From assembly GCA_038824035.1 (NCBI GenBank), contig JAWBBW010000003.1, positions 1 through 64,000 on the forward strand: a stretch of DNA of 64,000 nt. The letters run 5' to 3'. This DNA is from Desulfurococcaceae archaeon (GTDB lineage Archaea > Thermoproteota > Thermoprotei_A > Sulfolobales > Desulfurococcaceae). The translations under genes and the position numbers were made by a program. Position 1 is the stretch's first letter. Every line of letters starts with the position of its first letter. This document shows, piece by piece, positions 35-11,112 of the stretch. The notes below the pieces were generated by a model. It was not told the origin of the DNA and did not search any database. It worked only from the letters and a program-made list of their open reading frames with translations.

Positions 35-388
35 CTACACTTCTACGTAGACGTCTATGAACTTCTTATACCATTTCTCATATTCTTCTGGAGTTACAAT
101 ATGTACCTGGAAGATGTACTCAAAGCCCAGGTCCTCGAATATCTTCTTGTATAATTTCGCTCTCATCCACGGATCCCTTGCAAGCTCCGTTACGAGGAGA
201 ACATCAATATCGCTATCGGGCCTCATTTTGCCACGCACGTAGCTACCAAATAGCATAGTTCTGCAAGTGGAGTCTGCAGATACGCATATCTCTTTGATCT
301 TACCTATATGTGTCATAATGCTCTCTAAGCACCTCTTCCTGGCGAGGTACTTGTGGTAGAGGAAGTCTATGAAGCCTTCTCGAGCCAT
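35..388 (-). CDS. Minimal nucleotidyltransferase (MNT), antitoxin-type partner of HEPN protein
   Basis: LFGSYVRG...SDIDVLLV Pol-beta NTase motif; 117 aa; overlaps the end of the upstream HEPN gene. Confidence 0.9.
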   Translation of the reverse strand: MAREGFIDFLYHKYLARKRCLESIMTHIGKIKEICVSADSTCRTMLFGSYVRGKMRPDSDIDVLLVTELARDPWMRAKLYKKIFEDLGFEYIFQVHIVTPEEYEKWYKKFIDVYVEV

Positions 389-754
389 TTAAACACCTCT
401 AAAAGCTTTTTACCAAGTTCTAAAGCCCGTGTAACAATCTCAGGATCGTACTCTCTAGGAATATATTTCGACGTAATATATAATTCCTCTAAAAGGTATA
501 ATAACTCTATATGAGAACTTACAATATTCTCGAGTTCTATATTTCCATAGATCTTCACAAGATCTTTAAGCAGAATAACAATTGAATGTGTCTTTGGGAA
601 ATCTCCCAGCCTTCTATACAACAAATACTTCGCGTAAAGCTGTATAGCCTGTTCTATGTGGAAGAGAACTAAGTCGTAGTCCCCTCGATCAAAATCATCA
701 ATGGCATTGTCTCAGAAACGACTCGGCCCTTCTACGCAAAATCTCGTAGCTCAC
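367..754 (-). pseudogene. HEPN-domain protein with a +1 frameshift near 709
   Basis: GTG at 754 after GGGTGG RBS gives MSYEILRRRAESFLR; removing one base continues NAIDDFDRGDYDLVLFHIEQAIQLYAKYLLYRRLGDFPKTHS (typical HEPN). Span is 388 nt = 3n+1. Confidence 0.8.
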
Positions 755-1439: not shown

Positions 1440-2408
1440 TTAGCTAGAGTGTTGCTTCATAATGTGTTCAGCTATTTTAATGGCGCCATTAGTGTACTTG
1501 ATAGATGGTTTTTTCTCAGCCTCTTCCAATGCTTCTACGAGTTTACCAGGTGTTGCTTCGTCGAGGAAAACAGCGTTTAGTTTTTCAGCAAATGCCTTAA
1601 CCTCTCTTTTTGTGAAGAGCTTTGAATGCCTCTTGGTATAGGCTATGACCACGGGTTTCCCATAAGCGAGCCTGGCTGTCGCGGCTGTTATTCCCGGGTG
1701 GGTTATAACGATCCTCGCTCCTGCAATCCACTTGTGGAGGTCTTCTGTGTACTTGAAGAAGACCCACTTTGGCTTTCTCTGCGTGAAAGGGATTGGATCG
1801 ATATCACCTGTTTGTATAACCATTTTATCCACATCGAGCTCCAAAGCAGCGTTAAAGAGATCATCAGCGCCGAGCGTGCCGGTTGTCACCAACACGTATC
1901 CCTCATCTCGTGGCTCATAAATCAAGGGCTCGTAAACCGGCCCGACTACTACTCCATGGGGGTATATCCTCAACTGCTCTTCCCAGTGGAGGAAAACCAT
2001 TGCGCCTGTTTTGTAGAGGAAATTCACTGCCATGCTGCCTCTACAAACCCTGTCAACCGCTTCTAGTGTATAAACCCTACTTTTCCTCAGTGTTTTCAAA
2101 GTGATGGAGGGTAATATCGAGAAATTAGAGCCCGGTGCGAAGATGAATCTATATTTTTCGCGGACAAGGTTGAGTGATTCAGCAAACGCTCTCAGCCATC
2201 TGTGAACTCCTTTGTGGAAAGGCTCAAGCGGTCTACGAGGTAGTGTCGCGTAAATGGTTCTACCTAATTCCTTGAACCTGGTCTCGAGGTATAGGTAACC
2301 CCGTGGTAATAGAACATCAAGTTCAACCCCGCGCTTAGCCAATTCACGGGCAACTGTGTAAGCATAGCCAGCATGGCCTCCATAACTAGCTATGACAAGT
2401 CCTCGCAT
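1440..2408 (-). CDS. Alg14/Alg13-like (Agl24/MurG-type GT-B) UDP-GlcNAc transferase
   Basis: N-terminal ASYGGH motif, LEAVDR and FLHWEEQ (Alg14-like); LVTTGT, VIQTG and ITHPG (Alg13-like) in one chain. Confidence 0.75.
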   Translation of the reverse strand: MRGLVIASYGGHAGYAYTVARELAKRGVELDVLLPRGYLYLETRFKELGRTIYATLPRRPLEPFHKGVHRWLRAFAESLNLVREKYRFIFAPGSNFSILPSITLKTLRKSRVYTLEAVDRVCRGSMAVNFLYKTGAMVFLHWEEQLRIYPHGVVVGPVYEPLIYEPRDEGYVLVTTGTLGADDLFNAALELDVDKMVIQTGDIDPIPFTQRKPKWVFFKYTEDLHKWIAGARIVITHPGITAATARLAYGKPVVIAYTKRHSKLFTKREVKAFAEKLNAVFLDEATPGKLVEALEEAEKKPSIKYTNGAIKIAEHIMKQHSS

Positions 2409-3101
2409 AAAATCACCTCCTTATCAGTAACTGGGCTAATCAATGTATATGTCAAGTGCTTTCTAAACCTTAATCAAACACTACACTGGGTGAACTACGA
2501 CGCCAAGTCAATAATTTTGTCTCCAAGAGACCAGGTCTCCCTATAAAAACATGGCTTTTCATGGATCGCGATGAGCCAAACCTGCCTCAAAATCCATTGA
2601 TGTATTTTGAAGAACTATTAGCGATGACTAAACGTTCTTGAACATCAGTGCTAACTCCACGTGGCTAAATCCCGTCGCTCTTTCAGTTTCAACGCCCGGC
2701 GAGAGCACGTATGTGCACTCCATGGCATTCAACCTCTATTTCAGGAGATCAAGGTACTCGTAGTTAACCCTGTAATTCACATAGCCTATGATAGCTGATT
2801 CAGGCCTCTTGCCATGATATATTTATTAATCCTAATACCACTGAGAACACTGTAAATCTCGTCGAAAAGCCTGTGAAGTCTTAACAATTCCGTTCTAAAC
2901 CTCTGTTCTGTGACATGAATTCGAAATACATATTGTTCTGCCTGACAAATCCACTCAACAATACACTCGGTGTTAAGACACGATATGTGAAAACCAAAGT
3001 AGAAACAATACTCGTCATCAAGGACTATGGACTGTAATTGCCCTTGACCTTCATTAAACCTTGAACAATAGCCAGTGACCTAGGAAATACCTTGTAATGG
3101 A

Positions 3102-3130
3102 TAATTACATGTAATTACATGTTATAACAT
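3102..3130. promoter_or_regulatory. Overlapping perfect palindromes upstream of hydrogenase operon (putative operator)
   Basis: TAATTACATGTAATTA (3102-3117), ACATGTAATTACATGT (3107-3122) and ATGTTATAACAT (3119-3130) are each self-complementary; about 45-75 nt before the first start codon. Confidence 0.55.
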
Positions 3131-3174
3131 CATGAATTAATCCTGGTGATTTTTAATTCTTACTTAATAGGTGT

Positions 3175-3696
3175 ATGATGCTTATGAATCAAGTAGAAAT
3201 AGGCAGAATTGAGCACATAGCCGAGATCGATGTTTCAAAGTTGGTGGATAATATTATTGAGAGACGTGGTTGTCATAGAAGCAAATTAATCCCAATACTC
3301 CAAGATATCCAAGGTGAATTAAAATACCTCCCGAGAAAAGCACTTGAATTGATTTCAAACAAGCTCAGTATACCGATCTCTGAAATAATTGCTGTAGCTT
3401 CTTTTTATCATCAGTTCAGATTAGAACCCATCGGAGATTATATTTTTCAAGTATGTTTAGGAACAGCGTGCTATCTAAAAGGGGCGAACGATGTTTACGA
3501 AGCATTAAAATTAATTGCCGATAAGACTCGTATAACCGTTGAAAAAGCACGATGTTTTGGATGTTGTAGCCTTGCCCCGGTTATGATGGTAATTAATACC
3601 AAGACGGGTAGCAAGGACATATATGGAAGACTAAATCCAAATGATGCGAGAAAAATAGCGTCAAAGTACTTAGCGATAACACGTAGCAAGAGGTAA
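3175..3696 (+). CDS. NuoE/HydC-like [2Fe-2S] diaphorase subunit
   Basis: LIPILQDIQ, VASFYHQF, VCLGTAC...RCFGCCSLAP. Confidence 0.92.
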   Translation: MMLMNQVEIGRIEHIAEIDVSKLVDNIIERRGCHRSKLIPILQDIQGELKYLPRKALELISNKLSIPISEIIAVASFYHQFRLEPIGDYIFQVCLGTACYLKGANDVYEALKLIADKTRITVEKARCFGCCSLAPVMMVINTKTGSKDIYGRLNPNDARKIASKYLAITRSKR

Positions 3697-3702
3697 TCTT
3701 AA

Positions 3703-5529
3703 TTGAATAGCGATGAATCATTAAGTGAAATCATCTACGGTCATGGCGATTTAAGAATACACATTCCCATATCGAGTTGTACTTTAGCCGCTGGGGCTCA
3801 GGAGATATACGATGTTACTGAAAAATACATTCATAGAACCGGTATAAACGCCGAGTTACATAAAGTTGGCTGTATGGGGTTATGTTTCCTGGATCCATGG
3901 ATCATGGTTGCTGGTAAAGATCTACCGCCGGCAATATATGTAAACGTTAAACCCACCGATGTCGAGGAAATAGTGAACAAGTATTTAAAGGGGGATTTAT
4001 CAAACGCGTATGCTATTAGGTTCAGAAGAGGCGATACAAGTTATGATGTCCCATCACTCGAGGATAGGCCTGAGTGGAAACACCAAGTAAGATTCGTTTC
4101 AAGGAATTGTGGATTGATTGATCCAGAATCCATAGACGAGTACATCAAAACAGGAGGTTATGAAGGACTTAGAAAGGCATTGAAAATGAAACAGGAAGAG
4201 ATAATAGAGGTGGTTAAAAAATCCTGTCTAAGAGGTAGAGGTGGTGCTGGCTTTCCAACATGGCTTAAGTGGAAAATAACCTATGAACAAAAGAGCGATG
4301 AGAAGTATGTTATATGTAATGGAGATGAAGGTGATCCAGGGGCTTTTATGAACAGGCTTTTAGCGGAGTCTGATCCCCATAGAGTTATAGAGGGATTAAT
4401 AATAGCTGGTTATGCCGTGGGTGCCACTAAAGGATTCATCTTTGTGAGAGCGGAGAAACCACTTATGGCGAATAGATTGGAAAAAGCAGTTATCGAGGCT
4501 AGAAAGAAAGGATTTCTCGGTGAAAAAATAATGGGGACAAACTTCAACTTCGATATCGAGGTCTACAGAAGCGCGGGGGCATTTGTTTGCGGCGAGGAAA
4601 CGGCATTAATAGCTGCAATTGAGGGTAAAGCCCGACCAAGACAAAGACCGCCATATCCAGCTGTAAGTGGGTTATGGGGTAGACCAACACTTATAAACAA
4701 TGTCGAAACACTAGCTCATATTGCAACAATATTTCAAGTCGGGGTAGACGAGTTCATTAAGTACGGGACTGAAAAATCTAAGGGTACTAAGATGTTTTGT
4801 GTAACCGGAGCAGTGAAAAGGACTGGTGTCTATGAGGTACCAATAGGAACAACTATTAAAAAACTGGTATATGAATTAGCAGGAGGACCTGTTGAAGGTA
4901 AAAGGATAAAGGCTGTTCAAGTGGGAGGACCAAGTGGAGGATGTATACCATCTGATTTATTCGACCTGGAATTAGATTATGAAACATTACAAGCTTATGG
5001 AGCTATAATGGGATCGGGAGGATTGGTTGTAATAGATGATTCCGGATGCATGGTTAATGTTGCGAAATATTTCACCGATTTCACATTGGCAGAGTCATGT
5101 GGGAAATGCTTGCCATGTAGAGTTGGAATGAAAATAATGAATGATATACTGGGGAAAATAGTGAACGGCGAAGGGGATTCCTCTGATATAGAGACCTTAA
5201 GGGATCTAGGTGTATCGGTGATCAAAACAAGCTTATGTGGTTTAGGAGGGACTGCACCGAACCCGGTCCTATCAACTCTCAGGTATTTTGAAAGTGAATA
5301 CAAAGAACACATAGAGAACAAAAAATGCCCGGCAAAGGCATGTCCAAGGCTCGTAACTTACGCGATAATTGAAAATAGATGTCGTGGATGTGGTGTTTGC
5401 GCGAGACATTGTCCGGCCAATGCCATTGAGGGTATAACAGGTAAACCCCATTCCATCAATCCCTTGAAATGTATAAAATGTGGTATGTGTTTGATTAGTT
5501 GCCCCTTCGGTGCAATTGAAAAAACATAG
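3703..5529 (+). CDS. NuoF/HydB-like FMN/NAD(H)-binding diaphorase subunit with C-terminal 2x[4Fe-4S]
   Basis: LRGRGGAGFPT, CNGDEGDPGAFM, GAFVCGEETAL, GGPSGG, ESCGKCLPCR, two CxxCxxCxxxCP motifs. Confidence 0.95.
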   Translation: MNSDESLSEIIYGHGDLRIHIPISSCTLAAGAQEIYDVTEKYIHRTGINAELHKVGCMGLCFLDPWIMVAGKDLPPAIYVNVKPTDVEEIVNKYLKGDLSNAYAIRFRRGDTSYDVPSLEDRPEWKHQVRFVSRNCGLIDPESIDEYIKTGGYEGLRKALKMKQEEIIEVVKKSCLRGRGGAGFPTWLKWKITYEQKSDEKYVICNGDEGDPGAFMNRLLAESDPHRVIEGLIIAGYAVGATKGFIFVRAEKPLMANRLEKAVIEARKKGFLGEKIMGTNFNFDIEVYRSAGAFVCGEETALIAAIEGKARPRQRPPYPAVSGLWGRPTLINNVETLAHIATIFQVGVDEFIKYGTEKSKGTKMFCVTGAVKRTGVYEVPIGTTIKKLVYELAGGPVEGKRIKAVQVGGPSGGCIPSDLFDLELDYETLQAYGAIMGSGGLVVIDDSGCMVNVAKYFTDFTLAESCGKCLPCRVGMKIMNDILGKIVNGEGDSSDIETLRDLGVSVIKTSLCGLGGTAPNPVLSTLRYFESEYKEHIENKKCPAKACPRLVTYAIIENRCRGCGVCARHCPANAIEGITGKPHSINPLKCIKCGMCLISCPFGAIEKT

Positions 5530-5539
5530 GTGATAAATT

Positions 5540-6187
5540 ATGGTTAGAGTCAAGGTCAACGATATAGAAGTAGAAGTATCGCCGGGTTCATATATCATAG
5601 ATGCTATTGAAAAAGCTGGGTTCAGAGTTCCCTTACTATGCTATCTTAAAGGTTTATTCAATGAGGCGACTTGTAGATTATGTGTCGTGAAAGCTAATGG
5701 AAGAGTTGTCCCATCATGTAGATTCCCTGTTCAAGAAGATATGGTCATTATTACAAATGACAACGAGTTACATAAGTTGAGAAGAATAAACTTCGAGTTA
5801 GTTTTAGCAACACATAATATAAATTGTTGGGAATGTTATAGGAAGGGATCGTGTTTGCTCGTCTCACTTTCAAAGGAACTCAGAGTTGAAGGTATACCAG
5901 TATGTTCCGAGTGTTTCTTATATGGTGATCGATGTTTAATAAAACAAGGAATTCCATGCTTAGGCCCCATCACTATTGCTGGATGTGATGCCGAATGTAC
6001 CAGGCAAAACGCACCCTGTATTGGATGCAGGGGATTCGTATCTAGCATGAGTATCTGGAAAAATGCGCTTAGATTTTACAAGGAAAACAATATTGAAAGA
6101 AGAGATCTAGAATCGGTCATAGCCATCTTTTGGCCGGTTCTACCGATTAAATTCCAGAAATTAATTCTAGAGGTGTACATGCAGTGA
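5540..6187 (+). CDS. Chimeric Fe-S subunit: NuoG/HydA N-terminus fused to C-terminal half of a group 3 [NiFe]-hydrogenase small subunit
   Basis: PLLCY...CRLC...PSC [2Fe-2S] and HNINCWEC...C His-ligated [4Fe-4S], then PVCSEC...CLGPITIAGC...CIGCRG. Confidence 0.85.
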   Translation: MVRVKVNDIEVEVSPGSYIIDAIEKAGFRVPLLCYLKGLFNEATCRLCVVKANGRVVPSCRFPVQEDMVIITNDNELHKLRRINFELVLATHNINCWECYRKGSCLLVSLSKELRVEGIPVCSECFLYGDRCLIKQGIPCLGPITIAGCDAECTRQNAPCIGCRGFVSSMSIWKNALRFYKENNIERRDLESVIAIFWPVLPIKFQKLILEVYMQ

Positions 6188-7422
6188 ACAATACCCGGTT
6201 AGAGCTTGAACTAGATAGAGTGGCCGGAGAGTCGAAGATTACAGTTTATCTGAAAAATGGGGAAATCAGAGCCGAATACTCGGGGTTATTAAGTGAAAGA
6301 TTATTTGAGCGTTTAATTATGAAACGCGACTACAAATATGTGCCATATATAGCAGCTAGAATATGTGGTGTATGTAGCCATGCCCATTTCTGGGCCTCAA
6401 ATCTAGCGATTGAGAATGCCCTGGGAATAGAAGTTGACGAGGTCACGGCTGAGTTAAGGGATATATGCAACAAGCTCCAAATCATAGAAAATCACTTGGT
6501 TCACTTGTTTTTCCTTGCATTACCTGATTACAAGACCCCTGAGCCGAAGATCTTATCCAATGTCATAAAGGCCAAGGAGTTATTGAAAAACACGTTGAAC
6601 ATATTATGCGGGAGATTATCAGGGCCACAACCATATATGCCAGGTGGTTTCATCAAGGAAATATCAGGATTACATATTGATAAATCGACTAAATTAATGG
6701 AGCACTTGGTCTTAATTATTAATGAAGTTGTCAACTATGTTTTGAGCAAAATTAATTTACCTTTACTAAAAGATCCTTCCCCCAATTATCTAGCATTATC
6801 CACTTGGCCTGAGAAAAGCATACCGATCAAGGAACCATACGTTATCTCGAGCAATAATGGAAATGTTGAAATAAATGGCGAGAACTATTTGAATTACTTT
6901 AATGAAATTAAATCAGAATACTCAAATAGCAAGTCATGTGTTTTCAATAACCAGGTGTTCTTTGTTGGAGCAAGAGCAAGGCTCTTAGCTAAAAGGTACA
7001 TGGATTTAAGCCCAGAACTCCTCGATTCACTGAGTAACAATCCCTATAGCAACATAGTAGCTAAGGCCATAGAAGCTCGTTATTTAGTAAGCGATGTGTT
7101 AAATAAATTGAGTGGTGTAGCCGGTAAATCACCCAAGAGAACTCTGCCTAGCCGTAATAAAGGAAGGGGATTATCTATTGTCGAAGCGCCACGTGGATTA
7201 TTAATTCACTACTATGAGATCGGAGAAGAAGGTAGGATAGAAAGAGTAAACATAATCACGCCTACTGTTATGTTTACTAAACACGTGGAGAAAACCGCTG
7301 AGGCTTTGGTAAAACAGTTTTATGACATGGAGATTAATACGATATCTAAGTATATAGAAATGTTAATACGATCATATGATCCATGTATACCTTGTGCTGT
7401 TCACTTGATTAAAGTCTCATAG
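6184..7422 (+). CDS. Group 3 [NiFe]-hydrogenase large subunit
   Basis: L1 RICGVC and L2 DPCIPCAVH with 5-residue extension; EAPRG, IITPT. Confidence 0.93.
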   Translation: MNNTRLELELDRVAGESKITVYLKNGEIRAEYSGLLSERLFERLIMKRDYKYVPYIAARICGVCSHAHFWASNLAIENALGIEVDEVTAELRDICNKLQIIENHLVHLFFLALPDYKTPEPKILSNVIKAKELLKNTLNILCGRLSGPQPYMPGGFIKEISGLHIDKSTKLMEHLVLIINEVVNYVLSKINLPLLKDPSPNYLALSTWPEKSIPIKEPYVISSNNGNVEINGENYLNYFNEIKSEYSNSKSCVFNNQVFFVGARARLLAKRYMDLSPELLDSLSNNPYSNIVAKAIEARYLVSDVLNKLSGVAGKSPKRTLPSRNKGRGLSIVEAPRGLLIHYYEIGEEGRIERVNIITPTVMFTKHVEKTAEALVKQFYDMEINTISKYIEMLIRSYDPCIPCAVHLIKVS

Positions 7423-7424
7423 GG

Positions 7425-8750
7425 TTGATCTACTTGAAAATGGCGTTAATATCCCTAACAGGATGTGAAGGATGTTTCTACAATTTAATCGATGAACGAG
7501 TATTAGGATTACTGGAGAAATATAACGTAGAATTAGTTGATTGGCGATTTCTAGGAATAAGAAAAAGTGACGAATACGATATCGCAGTAGTTGAGGGCTC
7601 TGTTGTTAATGAAAATGACTTAAAGAAGCTTCAATTAATAAGGAAGAAATCGAAGATCCTGGTTGCTATCGGTACATGCGCTATTCAGGGAGGTGTTCAA
7701 GCTGGAATACAGCGCGAAATAGAAAAACACGAATCTAAGCCTTTAGCCTCCTATGTCAAGGTGGATTACTATATACGGGGATGCCCCGTCAGGGTTGAGG
7801 AATTTCTACGATTTCTTGAAGATGTTTTAAGAGGCGAGAAGCCAGTATGGTATGAAAGAAGATTTGATCTAGTTGAACGACCAGTGTTTAAGGTAAGTGA
7901 TAGTGATGGTTTTCTAATCTTAGATTCATCTAAATGCATTGTTTGTGGCAGATGTATAGAGCTGTGTAGAATCATGCAAGCTAATGTCCTGAACTATATT
8001 AATAGAGGCATATCAACGCTTGTTTCAACTCCGTATGGAGATCGATTCGAGAGTGCTGGTTGTCACTACTGTGGTTTATGCGTAGCATATTGTCCAGTCG
8101 GTGCGATTACACATAAACTTGAAATCGATAAATTAACTAATGGTAAAGGTTTGGAGATCTATATAGAACCAGAAGCTCTTGCATCGTTAATTGAAGCCGA
8201 AGACAGCGATCTTTTGCAAATCATTAAGGCTTTATATGTGCTTGGCTATGACAAGATCATAGTATACTCTAATGCTGTACAAGTTCAACCGGGCAAAATA
8301 TATGCTAAGAGTCCCGTTGAATATCAATTCCTAAAGAGGACTTATCCAGATCTCGAAGTGGAGCTCTTAGTCCCTAAAATACCGGATAACGCGATTTATG
8401 TGACTCAATGCATGGCTTGGAGAAGACTGTTAAAAAATGCCGTAACTAGTAGAGAATTACAGATATTGATGAAAAGTATTCCTAAAGAAACGTTGTCAAT
8501 TAAACCAGGAGAACAACTTAAACAACCTATAATCAATTTGAACCCCGGTATAAGTGTAAAGTATATAAATAATCCACGAGAAATAAAGGATATGGTTGAT
8601 AAAGCCCTGGATCAAGCGTTGATCTACACAATGTGTCCTGGAGGCTGTTTAATGGGTGGTGGCCAGCCCTTGTCTAAAAACGGTTCATGGCGTTCAATAT
8701 ACGAAGCGAGATCAATGATATTGAAAAGACTGGATACTTCTTTTACTTAG
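7425..8750 (+). CDS. Chimeric subunit: [NiFe] small-subunit N-terminus + 2x[4Fe-4S] + degenerate [FeFe]-hydrogenase H-domain
   Basis: TGCEGC, VEGSV, GTCA, GCP; then CIVCGRCIELC and CHYCGLCVAYCP; C-terminal MCPGGCLMGGGQP (P3-like motif). Confidence 0.85.
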   Translation: MIYLKMALISLTGCEGCFYNLIDERVLGLLEKYNVELVDWRFLGIRKSDEYDIAVVEGSVVNENDLKKLQLIRKKSKILVAIGTCAIQGGVQAGIQREIEKHESKPLASYVKVDYYIRGCPVRVEEFLRFLEDVLRGEKPVWYERRFDLVERPVFKVSDSDGFLILDSSKCIVCGRCIELCRIMQANVLNYINRGISTLVSTPYGDRFESAGCHYCGLCVAYCPVGAITHKLEIDKLTNGKGLEIYIEPEALASLIEAEDSDLLQIIKALYVLGYDKIIVYSNAVQVQPGKIYAKSPVEYQFLKRTYPDLEVELLVPKIPDNAIYVTQCMAWRRLLKNAVTSRELQILMKSIPKETLSIKPGEQLKQPIINLNPGISVKYINNPREIKDMVDKALDQALIYTMCPGGCLMGGGQPLSKNGSWRSIYEARSMILKRLDTSFT

Positions 8751-8870
8751 TTCTGATAAGAGGTTGGAAATTACGTGATCCGGGTATTTTAAAACAAATT
8801 AAAATAGCTGGATAAGTTAGATTAAAAATCCTTGACTGAAAGGCTATATTTCAATGTATGGTGACAAATC

Positions 8871-9704
8871 TTGAGTATCGAGGTTAGAAAGGTCATAAAG
8901 GTTGGCAAACAGTCCAGTGCCATTGTAATACCATCAACTTGGATGAGTCAACTTGGACTTAACATAGGTGATCAAGTTAAACTAGTATATGATGGCAATA
9001 GAATAGTCATAACACCAATAAAAGAGGCTGAGTTGTTCCGGGGGCAAATAACGATTGAAGGCGCGGATAAAATAGCACTTGCTAAGTTAATAGCAGCTTT
9101 CATGGAAGGTGTTGCTACTGTTAAATTTAAAGCGGATTATGAAGATGCAGTTAAATTACTAAATGAATTGAAAAAAGAGGTTCCCTCAGTTATATTCATT
9201 GCAAGACCTGATAATAGATATCACACTGTTATATTTCCCGATATCAGTGTGGATTACAGTGAACTTCTTGTGAAGTTTTGCGAAGTTTTTAAGAAAATAG
9301 TAAGACGTGAAGGCGAATTAAATATTTTGTTATCTGATTTCAAATATACACAGTTATTGTTGTTAAGATTACTTAAGATTAAATACTATGGAGACAATTT
9401 AAATATACCTGAAGCGTTGGATGTTGTGTTATTTGCTAATGTATTGAGGGAAATTGTTGATTTAATTATAGATAGGAACATTCAAATCAACGAGGAACTC
9501 GAGGACATAGTCTCACTATTAGTTGATCAATTCTGTGGCAATGACTTGGATGCCGCAGTTAAAATAGCTAGTAATATTATGGTCAAAGCTGATAAATTTC
9601 CACCTGAGATGCAAAAACATGTTTCAATGCTCATTGAATTGATATTCAGACGATGTATAAGGGATAAGGCATGTAGATGTAAACACTTCTTTCCCAAGAT
9701 CTAG
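8871..9704 (+). CDS. AbrB/SpoVT DNA-binding domain + PhoU-like regulator with Cys-rich tail
   Basis: EVRKVIKVGKQSSAIVIPSTWMSQLGLNIGDQV AbrB fold; LIAAFMEG; ends RRCIRDKACRCKHF. Confidence 0.8.
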   Translation: MSIEVRKVIKVGKQSSAIVIPSTWMSQLGLNIGDQVKLVYDGNRIVITPIKEAELFRGQITIEGADKIALAKLIAAFMEGVATVKFKADYEDAVKLLNELKKEVPSVIFIARPDNRYHTVIFPDISVDYSELLVKFCEVFKKIVRREGELNILLSDFKYTQLLLLRLLKIKYYGDNLNIPEALDVVLFANVLREIVDLIIDRNIQINEELEDIVSLLVDQFCGNDLDAAVKIASNIMVKADKFPPEMQKHVSMLIELIFRRCIRDKACRCKHFFPKI

Positions 9705-10110
9705 TCTTAATTCAGCCAGGTTTAATTTGGTTTACTTTAATATAGTCTGTAATGACAGGGCATTGTTGGGGATATCATTCTATCAAGGGAAATTAGAACA
9801 CATGTACTGTACATGGAATTTTAAATGTGAAGGAATTTGGAAAAACTTCCATGATACAAAATATGGGAGATGGCGAAACCACTTAGTATTGTACTGCACA
9901 ATTACATGCATATGCATGAGAGTTGGTTTAATAAATGAACCAAGTAATGAGGTAATATATTATACACGGTAATTATTGCAGAACATTTCGATCAGGGGAA
10001 TAGAGGATATTACTGCCATAAGGGGCATCTACATTCTCAATAATGATCATTGAAATACTATTTTTCTTCATGTTTGTTTCATTTTTAACAACAATCCTTG
10101 TAATTCATAG

Positions 10111-11112
10111 TTGGTGGGAATAATGGTTTACGTGTTCAATAAGGTCATCGTTACAGGTGGGGCAGGGTTTATTGGGAGCCATATTGTGGACTATATAATA
10201 GGCAACAAGCTGGCCGAGCACGTCGTGGTAATAGATAATCTAAGTAGTGGATCGGTGGAGAATATTGAACAATGGATAAATACCGGTTCATTACAACTAA
10301 TCGTAGCTGATTTGAAGAAATTTGATGAGAAATGGGTAACGGCGTTTAAAGGGGTAGATGCTGTTCTACACCTAGCCGCTAACCCCGAGGTAAGGATTTC
10401 CTCAATAGAGCCTAGGGTTCATTTCGAGGAAAACGTCGTGGCCACTTTCAACGTGCTCGAGGCCTCCCGTGTACACGATGTAGGGGTACATTTTTTTGCA
10501 TCGAGTTCAACTGTTTACGGTGATGCCAGGGTAATACCAACCCCTGAGACCTATCCATTGGAACCTATATCTGTGTATGGCGCATCTAAGGCAGCTTGCG
10601 AAATGCTCTATCACTCGTATCACAAGCTATATGGATTCAGCGTGGCCATAGCCAGGTATGCGAATATCATAGGCCCTAGATCCACGCATGGAGTTGTAGT
10701 CGATTTCATTAAGAAACTGAGGAAAAATCCATTCAAATTAGAAATACTAGGTGATGGGGCCCAGAGGAAAAGCTACCTCTACATATCAGATGCCGTAGAG
10801 GCATCGATGATGCTCCTAGACCTATGTAAAAAGAACAGAGGATTTCACGTGTTCAACGTCGGTAACGAGGACTGGGTGACAGTGAGAGAGATAGCTGACA
10901 TAGTTGTCAAGGAAATGGGGCTTGTAAATGTCGAATACGTGCACAGGCCAATGACACCTGATGGACGTGGGTGGCCTGGCGATGTCAAGTTGATGCTACT
11001 TGATATAAGCAAGTTGAAAGAACTGGGTTGGAGACCTAAAATACCATCTACACTAGCTATTAAAATAACAGCGAGAGAACATATTGCGCGGATCGCGGGA
11101 AATGTCCAATAG
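10111..11112 (+). CDS. NAD-dependent epimerase/dehydratase (UDP-glucose 4-epimerase-like)
   Basis: TGGAGFIG, ASSSTVYG, YGASK, RYANIIGP. Confidence 0.92.
   Translation: MVGIMVYVFNKVIVTGGAGFIGSHIVDYIIGNKLAEHVVVIDNLSSGSVENIEQWINTGSLQLIVADLKKFDEKWVTAFKGVDAVLHLAANPEVRISSIEPRVHFEENVVATFNVLEASRVHDVGVHFFASSSTVYGDARVIPTPETYPLEPISVYGASKAACEMLYHSYHKLYGFSVAIARYANIIGPRSTHGVVVDFIKKLRKNPFKLEILGDGAQRKSYLYISDAVEASMMLLDLCKKNRGFHVFNVGNEDWVTVREIADIVVKEMGLVNVEYVHRPMTPDGRGWPGDVKLMLLDISKLKELGWRPKIPSTLAIKITAREHIARIAGNVQ

Follow-up and report, generated by a model that had tools for sequence, protein, structure and literature searches.

We asked how the iron-sulfur (Fe-S) domains of two hydrogenase subunits are divided between genes in a five-gene cluster of a Desulfurococcaceae archaeon (contig JAWBBW010000003.1), in which an earlier note on this DNA had seen two genes with exchanged halves on either side of a [NiFe] large-subunit gene. 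The window, meaning the whole stretch analysed, is 64,000 nucleotides (nt) long, and all coordinates refer to it. Five open reading frames (ORFs) form one tight cluster on its + strand (3175–3696, 3703–5529, 5540–6187, 6184–7422 and 7425–8750): hydC, hydB, hydD (ORF3), the large-subunit gene hyhL and a fusion gene (ORF5; Table 1). The operon type is that of the group F [FeFe]/group 3f [NiFe] hybrid hydrogenases (Greening et al., Cell 2024, PMC11216029). The analysis confirmed, far beyond chance expectation, that ORF3 and ORF5 are reciprocal chimeras of HydA and a group 3b-type [NiFe] small subunit, arranged around the large-subunit gene. HydD consists of the N-terminal third of an M3-type HydA (A_N) followed by the C-terminal domain of the small subunit (S_C), and the fusion consists of the N-terminal domain of the small subunit (S_N) followed by the ferredoxin domain (A_F) and the H-cluster-type domain, or H-domain (A_H), of HydA. 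As a whole, the locus is likely to be a five-gene hybrid hydrogenase operon in which the reciprocally chimeric Fe-S subunits re-associate in trans and the H-domain is eroded.

The two halves of each parent protein were located by phmmer searches of the Protein Data Bank (PDB). HydD residues 1–120 matched residues 3–123 of Thermoanaerobacter kivui HydA1 (8a6t_A, E = 9e-20), and its residues 118–190 matched residues 160–234 of the delta subunit of Pyrococcus furiosus sulfhydrogenase I (SHI; 9nez_A, E = 2.4e-14). The fusion matched the same kinds of protein in the opposite order, with residues 5–140 aligned to residues 5–156 of 9nez_A (E = 9e-18) and its following part aligned to HydA (residues 155–279 to 8a6t_A 131–265; residues 156–281 to Thermotoga maritima HydA, 7p5h_A 128–263, E = 1e-19). 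Between them these matches cover the small subunit except residues 157–159 and HydA except residues ~124–130; on the unsplit reference proteins, 3 residues (small subunit) and about 7 (HydA) were left uncovered at the joins, the halves adjoining to within 3–8 residues. The domain order proposed in the earlier note, HydA-N plus small-subunit C-part, large subunit, small-subunit N-part plus HydA-C, was thus borne out by Pfam and PDB matches. Its statement that the segments are contiguous in group 3b small subunits and in HydA agrees with the seamless joins on the unsplit references, and its breakpoints were correctly placed (nt 7844 for the end of GEKP, nt 5897 for the start of PVCSEC).

Isolated halves gave the same assignment. 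Searched alone, the 98-residue C-half of HydD yielded only [NiFe] small subunits of groups 3b and 3c among its PDB matches with E < 1e-4 (6/6), the top one being 9nez_A residues 161–234 (E = 1.3e-14, 57.5 bits). In HydD (215 residues) Pfam finds Fer2_4 and NADH-G_4Fe-4S_3 only, both within the first 117 residues. A_F alone scored 62, 59 and 54 bits to HydA of T. maritima, T. kivui and Acetobacterium woodii, respectively, and [NiFe] small subunits were absent from its best 60 PDB matches. Both HydA halves ranked the same three bifurcating HydA structures first; similarly, both small-subunit halves and the large subunit ranked P. furiosus SHI (group 3b) first. The eight Cys of the small-subunit C-domain are invariant across HydD and ordinary small subunits (alignment A3). 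The predicted model of the fusion (mean predicted local distance difference test score (pLDDT) 77, predicted template modelling score 0.64) matched HydA of HydABC enzymes and CpI (template modelling score TMq 0.48–0.49), its C-terminal two thirds being HydA-like, and its S_N part superposed on SHI delta with a root-mean-square deviation of 2.7 Å over 158 columns.

Conservation of the arrangement was assessed in 80 loci obtained from a scan of species genomes, all ORFs of which were scanned with five domain models cut from the window proteins. Three ORF designs were counted: HydD (A_N+S_C, 39), fusion (S_N+A_F, mostly with A_H, 44) and ordinary small subunit (S_N+S_C, 41). Every HydD-bearing locus had a fusion at the same locus (39/39). 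Six loci had a fusion only, and since every one of these was cut by a contig end or fragmented, no genuine one-chimera locus was seen. Across the ordinary small subunits, the N-half and C-half models were separated by a median of 4 residues (≤8 residues in 36 of the 41), and the corresponding join gap was 2–5 residues in all 39 HydD and 19–29 residues in all 44 fusions. The breakpoints, whose conservation the earlier note had proposed to check, therefore occupy the same positions in 39/39 HydD and 44/44 fusions. In single-sequence phmmer searches, S_C of the window matched 41/41 ordinary small subunits (E = 2e-17 to 2e-7), and A_F of the window matched 0/41. Because the same pair of chimeras occurs in 39 loci of independent assemblies, an assembly artefact or a chimeric contig was ruled out as the source of the arrangement.

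The claim that the two chimeras interlock was backed by modelling of their interface. When the fusion and HydD were predicted as a complex, each from a 20-row alignment, the interaction prediction score from aligned errors (ipSAE) was 0.83, compared with 0.00 for the best of three controls; in calibration, the ipSAE mark was passed by 116/157 solved complexes and by 2/215 mismatched pairs. Contact agreement between runs was at least 94%, and partner pLDDT was at least 89. The predicted interface residues span 32–107 (A_N) and 126–199 (S_C) of HydD and 84–139 (S_N), 167–234 (A_F) and 347–423 (A_H) of the fusion. The S_C-on-S_N contact is read from these residue lists, because A_N–A_F pairs are the only ones resolved residue by residue, and the pass may partly be memory of solved structures, since the contacts are intramolecular in solved HydA and small subunits. 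In such a complex, the halves would re-associate in trans via formerly intramolecular interfaces; the [NiFe] wire, which leads from the proximal over the medial to the distal cluster, and the HydA wire would each cross between polypeptides, and the shared wires would link the [NiFe] module with the flavin module of NuoE/NuoF type. Such an enzyme would be NAD(H)-linked and probably electron-bifurcating. The [NiFe] and [FeFe] parts must assemble because each parent's Fe-S wire spans two polypeptides, a requirement that the reciprocal arrangement explains. The reciprocal arrangement also changes the assignment of clusters to subunits and the way in which small-subunit trees are built.

The H-domain of the fusion is reduced, and its [FeFe] site is likely to be non-catalytic in this lineage, to judge by its residues and by the maturation genes of the genome. 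A_H has ~205 residues with only three Cys, Cys329 in L2 and Cys404 and Cys408 in L3, the latter with GGGQP; the motif names L1, L2 and L3 and the CpI numbering are used as we take them to be. The L1 stretch, AKSPVEY, contains no Cys, and Ser296 precedes its Pro. The L1 Cys is absent in the window and in 27/42 related loci and is kept in the other 15, and the L2 and L3 Cys are present in 43/43. PF02906 gave no match in the window fusion at E up to 0.01 (Pfam); in relatives, it scored 89.5 and 73.8 bits in two long ones and 19.5 bits in a third. The miss is not a matter of small size alone, because P0210, a HydA of 447 residues, still scores 86 bits to PF02906; it is one of three unsplit compact HydA (with P0238 and P0242; 447–453 residues) that comprise N-terminal Fe-S domains, a ferredoxin domain and an H-domain of ~200 residues. 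The genome that carries the window is 1.33 Mb long and 99.67% complete. HypD is present in it, no match to TIGR03955 or TIGR03956 (HydE/HydG) was found, and TIGR03918 (HydF) gave only sub-threshold GTPase matches (best 50.5 bits; cut-off 325.55). The genome contains no other group 3-type small subunit, its remaining PF01058 matches being open frames of 152 and 166 residues.

With no L1 Cys, no Pfam match and no HydE/HydG, H2 chemistry most likely takes place at the [NiFe] site only. If the [FeFe] site is indeed non-catalytic, the enzyme would then act as a [NiFe] hydrogenase that is linked to NAD(H) and may bifurcate electrons. Two points count on the other side. Four of six bacterial HydA references (P0096, P0100, P0101 and P0102) read TSCSPGW, the others reading TSCCPAW, and because of those four a Ser at the second L1 position is by itself no proof of H-cluster loss. 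In addition, the fusions tested according to the text of PMC11216029 are only two, both from Thermoplasmata, a clade other than that of the window. Among the Thermoproteota enzymes classed as 'group F [FeFe] hydrogenases', many may have ceased to be [FeFe] hydrogenases, which bears on counts of archaeal [FeFe] H2 metabolism.

We then asked whether the chimeras arose in one event. The earlier note had proposed a single crossover between a hydCBA operon and a circular small–large cassette. Gene order, the seamless joins and the breakpoints support this proposal in part: a single crossover is plausible, and the cassette may have been circular. S_C of HydD formed one clade of 40 sequences (39 loci and the window) against 41 ordinary small subunits (98, Shimodaira–Hasegawa-like approximate likelihood ratio test, SH-aLRT). 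Similarly, A_N of HydD and A_F+A_H of the fusions each formed one clade against 44 unsplit HydA (support 81 and 77, respectively), and a deep two-way split was common to these two trees. Among ordinary cassettes, the small-subunit gene precedes the large-subunit gene in 33/35 loci. A crossover of hydCBA with a cassette of this small-then-large order would give exactly the order C-B-D-L-fusion, which is the order of the window and of 24 of the 39 loci holding both chimeras.

Several observations weigh against a single, undisturbed origin. The trees are quick searches over short domains (78–163 columns), with references picked by likeness to the query. Of the separate half-domain trees called for in the earlier note, those of S_C, A_N and A_F+A_H gave single clades as described, and that of S_N did not, nor did the tree of the large subunit: a single clade of fusion S_N domains is rejected (approximately unbiased (AU) test, p = 0.005), in five fusions S_N groups as the sister of a Thermoplasmatota small subunit of the ordinary kind (97, SH-aLRT), and the large subunits of the same five are sister to the large subunit of that cassette (99, FastTree). 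Because the best S_N and S_C trees differ, the two small-subunit halves would have different histories in that lineage, although the S_C data do not reject placing its HydD with the same Thermoplasmatota cassette (AU p = 0.13). Either a later exchange of the [NiFe] half or a second origin is indicated for this lineage. Three further gene orders also occur (fusion-C-B-D-L, C-B-fusion-D-L and C-B-D-fusion; four in all). In the orders that keep the large subunit, C-B-D-L is fixed and the fusion gene alone moves. An intramolecular crossover within an A-S-L locus, by which D-L was left behind and the fusion was released on a circle, could likewise account for such movement.

Weighing these points, we tentatively, and at somewhat less than even chances, propose an origin by one reciprocal recombination between hydA and a small-subunit gene at two inter-domain linkers; at least one lineage would later have acquired another [NiFe] half (the large subunit and the N-domain of the small subunit), and in others the fusion gene would have been relocated. 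A bolder version, in which hybrid hydrogenases were born in one crossover that made two intramolecular interfaces the glue of a new complex, the [NiFe] half then became an exchangeable cassette, the iron-only site of the window clade decayed to an Fe-S scaffold, and the result is a living intermediate toward HydABCSL-, Hox- and NuoG-type architectures, we regard as unlikely.

It is quite unlikely that the two chimeras were assembled stepwise, through fissions and fusions that took place independently, as would be the case if a proximal-cluster-only (HoxY-like) small subunit had joined a HydA without its N-terminus and, in another event, a HoxU/NuoG-N-like protein had captured a small-subunit C-domain. 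Such a course would require at least four events, compared with one for the reciprocal crossover, and one-chimera loci were not encountered, the six apparent ones being cut or fragmented. Small subunits with the N-domain only (179–182 residues, PF01058 only) do exist beside NuoG-like proteins, in L029, L031 and L046, as a stepwise course would have it, but in the tree they are not the nearest relatives of the fusion S_N; the window S_N scores 67.6 bits to a full 3b small subunit and 67.2 bits to HoxY. The variation of gene order between lineages and the disagreement of the S_N and S_C trees also favour separate events.

Repeated independent swaps at the same two linkers with different small–large cassettes, the fusion-C-B-D-L lineage being a second origin, we consider very improbable. 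The constant position of the joins throughout speaks against them, as do the best S_C tree, which groups all 40 HydD C-halves, and the A_N and A_F+A_H trees, which group all chimeras apart from the unsplit HydA. What favours a second origin is the nesting of S_N and the large subunit of that lineage with the ordinary Thermoplasmatota cassette, an affinity left unrejected by its S_C data, and the gene order itself, since fusion-C-B-D-L is the order expected if hydCBA had entered a small–large operon.

The operon belongs to the published family, and the reciprocal chimeras and the eroded H-domain extend the description of that family rather than define a new kind. The relative P0047 (37% identity to the fusion, E = 7e-76) shares its first residues with DTCV01000006.1_8, one of the Sulfolobales NBVN01 members that Table S2 of PMC11216029 assigns to group F, and in our trees the window fusion nests inside a clade of such hybrid fusions. 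The features of the hybrid family found here are a small-subunit domain and a HydA-like C-part in one protein and contiguous hydC, hydB, hydD and hyhL. The same five genes, HydD type and order are found in the Sulfolobales NBVN01 members (hydC, hydB, nuoG-like, hyhL, hydA; supplement of PMC11216029). The window clade differs from the Thermoplasmata clade tested in that paper, which keeps the L1 Cys, in having neither this Cys nor a Pfam-detectable H-domain, and the conserved Cys ligands of the H-cluster, which the paper states for a Thermoplasmatota member, are incomplete here.

As far as its text goes, PMC11216029 describes a fusion and a NuoG-like conduit and no reciprocal swap: HydD is the conduit, with four clusters, and the three [4Fe-4S] clusters of the fusion are assigned to the [NiFe] component. 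In its table, the annotation of HydD is limited to Fer2_4 and NADH-G_4Fe-4S_3. The word 'swap' is used nowhere in the text and 'recombination' once, in a reference title; the figures and domain diagrams are outside this count and may show more. For the placement of cofactors in HydD its methods relied on MvhG (5ODC chain E), so the likeness of HydD to a small subunit was noticed in practice without being put into words. A full-text literature search did not find the reciprocal swap worded in any paper, and the preprint 10.1101/2024.07.04.601786, in the part available, merely mentions divergent hybrid hydrogenases.

In section 10 of PMC11216029 the fusion is parsed as an H-domain joined to a complete small subunit with its three [4Fe-4S] clusters, and HydD as a four-cluster homologue of NuoG/HoxU, no swap being involved. 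As a statement of homology this parse is hardly credible, being already contradicted by the PDB searches: F420-reducing hydrogenase gamma subunits do have a ferredoxin-type C-domain, and one (3zfs_B) aligns over fusion residues 7–224 with 47 bits in all, but the ferredoxin domain alone matches HydA of HydABC enzymes (62–54 bits, with no small subunit in the best 60), its alignment to 7p5h_A continues unbroken into the H-domain, the HydD C-half matches small subunits only, and the paper's own methods turned to MvhG for HydD. Two more specific candidates were likewise rejected, an FrhG-like whole small subunit in the fusion, because A_F matches HydA and none of the ordinary small subunits, and a HoxU-like C-terminus in HydD, because HoxU (5xf9_B) aligns with HydD residues 11–111 only.

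Among known systems, group G [FeFe] hydrogenases with hyhS and hyhL (Brockarchaeia JAAOZO01, PMC11216029) have the same parts in one locus. According to that source, the group G HydA (530 residues) comprises [2Fe-2S], His-[4Fe-4S] and 2[4Fe-4S] domains and a short H-domain, and is accompanied by a 3b small subunit of 244 residues and a 3b large subunit; unlike in the window, both genes are unsplit, the order is hydA, hyhS, hyhL, and hydB and hydC do not adjoin. A group G member, P0208, adjoined the chimeras in the quick A_N and A_F+A_H trees, without a settled position. Group G is the natural extant unswapped comparator and counts in favour of one event, and with it the reciprocal reading gives a testable origin scenario.

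P. furiosus SHI (9nez) is the best solved match to S_N, S_C and the large subunit; hyhL scored 119.8 bits to its alpha subunit (9nez_D, residues 11–410 against 14–427). The SHI small subunit is one chain of 261 residues, whereas here it is cut between its residues 156 and 160 and divided over two proteins. Large-subunit motifs and best likeness are shared with group 3b generally, but the contiguous three-cluster small subunit is not. HydABC enzymes (T. maritima 7p5h, T. kivui 8a6t, A. woodii 7q4v) have homologues of HydB and HydC here and match both HydA halves best; in contrast to them, HydA is here cut after the His-[4Fe-4S] domain, the short H-domain has no L1 Cys, and the genome has no HydE/HydG. 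The [NiFe]-HydABCSL enzyme of Acetomicrobium mobile (7t2r) likewise combines a NuoE/NuoF-like module, a HydA-like subunit and [NiFe] small and large subunits, but its HydA is unsplit (692 residues), and its small subunit (179 residues) has no domain other than the N-domain. Scores to it were lower (HydD to 7t2r_A, 63 bits; fusion to 7t2r_A and to 7t2r_E, 38 bits each). To our knowledge, the HydA of HydABCSL has no H-cluster, and if the H-domain here serves as no more than a scaffold, this enzyme probably comes closest to the hybrid as a working analogue.

Side observations were made among the related loci. On the – strand of L029 (1037–7157), L031 (1353–7483) and L046 (1236–7366), a second cluster adjoins the hybrid operon in divergent orientation; it encodes NuoE-like and NuoF-like proteins, a NuoG-like protein of 618–628 residues with a molybdopterin domain, the N-domain-only small subunit mentioned above and a large subunit. 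In a Hadarchaeota variant (L037, 4903–14588; L030, 119–9267), an HdrA-MvhD-type fusion lies upstream, and a CCG-domain (HdrB-like) protein replaces the [NiFe] large subunit; the H-domain of the fusion subunit is complete there (PF02906, 73.8 bits). The parts of the split small subunit thus persist in this variant without a large-subunit gene in the locus. The operon domains of L001, a contig titled as a Pyrobaculum metagenome-assembled genome (MAG), are identical to those of L002, a Desulfurococcaceae MAG (identical alignment rows), and the L001 contig may be mis-binned.

Table 1. Subunits and domains encoded by the hybrid hydrogenase operon, in window coordinates (aa, amino acids)
Feature	Coordinates	Strand	Evidence
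hydC, NuoE-like thioredoxin-type [2Fe-2S] subunit, 173 aa	3175–3696	+	Pfam PF01257, 120 bits
hydB, NuoF-like flavin/NAD(H) subunit with C-terminal 2x[4Fe-4S] domain, 608 aa	3703–5529	+	PF01512, 159 bits; PF10589, 100 bits; SLBB; Fer4 at residues 555–606
hydD N-half (A_N), residues 1–117, HydA-type [2Fe-2S] and His-ligated [4Fe-4S] domains	5540–5890	+	PF13510, PF10588
hydD C-half (S_C), residues 118–215, medial/distal two-cluster domain of group 3b-type [NiFe] small subunit	5891–6187	+	Eight invariant Cys; PDB search
hyhL, [NiFe] large subunit, 412 aa	6184–7422	+	PF00374 (NiFeSe_Hases), 112 bits
Fusion N-part (S_N), residues 1–145, proximal-cluster domain of [NiFe] small subunit	7425–7859	+	PF01058 (Oxidored_q6), 80 bits, residues 14–132
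Fusion middle (A_F), residues 146–236, ERRF linker, then HydA-type 2x[4Fe-4S] ferredoxin domain	7860–8132	+	PDB search; 4Fe-4S dicluster domain, residues 170–229
Fusion C-part (A_H), residues 237–441, reduced H-cluster-type domain	8133–8750	+	Alignments; fold match to HydA

The genes of the operon are closely packed. hydC is the first gene of the cluster in 24 related loci. The GTG start of hyhL overlaps the hydD stop by 4 nt, and its translation contains RICGVCSHAH and DPCIPCAVH, that is, both the N-terminal and the C-terminal CxxC metal motif. The fusion gene (441 aa) begins 3 nt past the hyhL stop; TTG 7425, TTG 7434 and ATG 7440 are possible starts, of which 7434 or 7440 may be the true one; relatives start at the 7434 position. 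A bacterial promoter and terminator scan of 2400–10200 gave counts not above those of shuffles and, with a consensus inapplicable to archaea, was uninformative. Right after the fusion gene, 8871–9704 (+) encodes a protein of 277 aa that starts with an AbrB/MazE-type domain (PF04014, 45 bits), a possible regulator of the operon; an 'hth' gene is given at the same place in Zestosphaera loci (table of PMC11216029). At the start of the window (35–624, – strand), a HEPN-domain gene (367–624; PF05168, 36 bits) overlaps a nucleotidyltransferase gene (35–388; PF01909, 42.5 bits) in the layout of a HEPN/MNT toxin–antitoxin pair.

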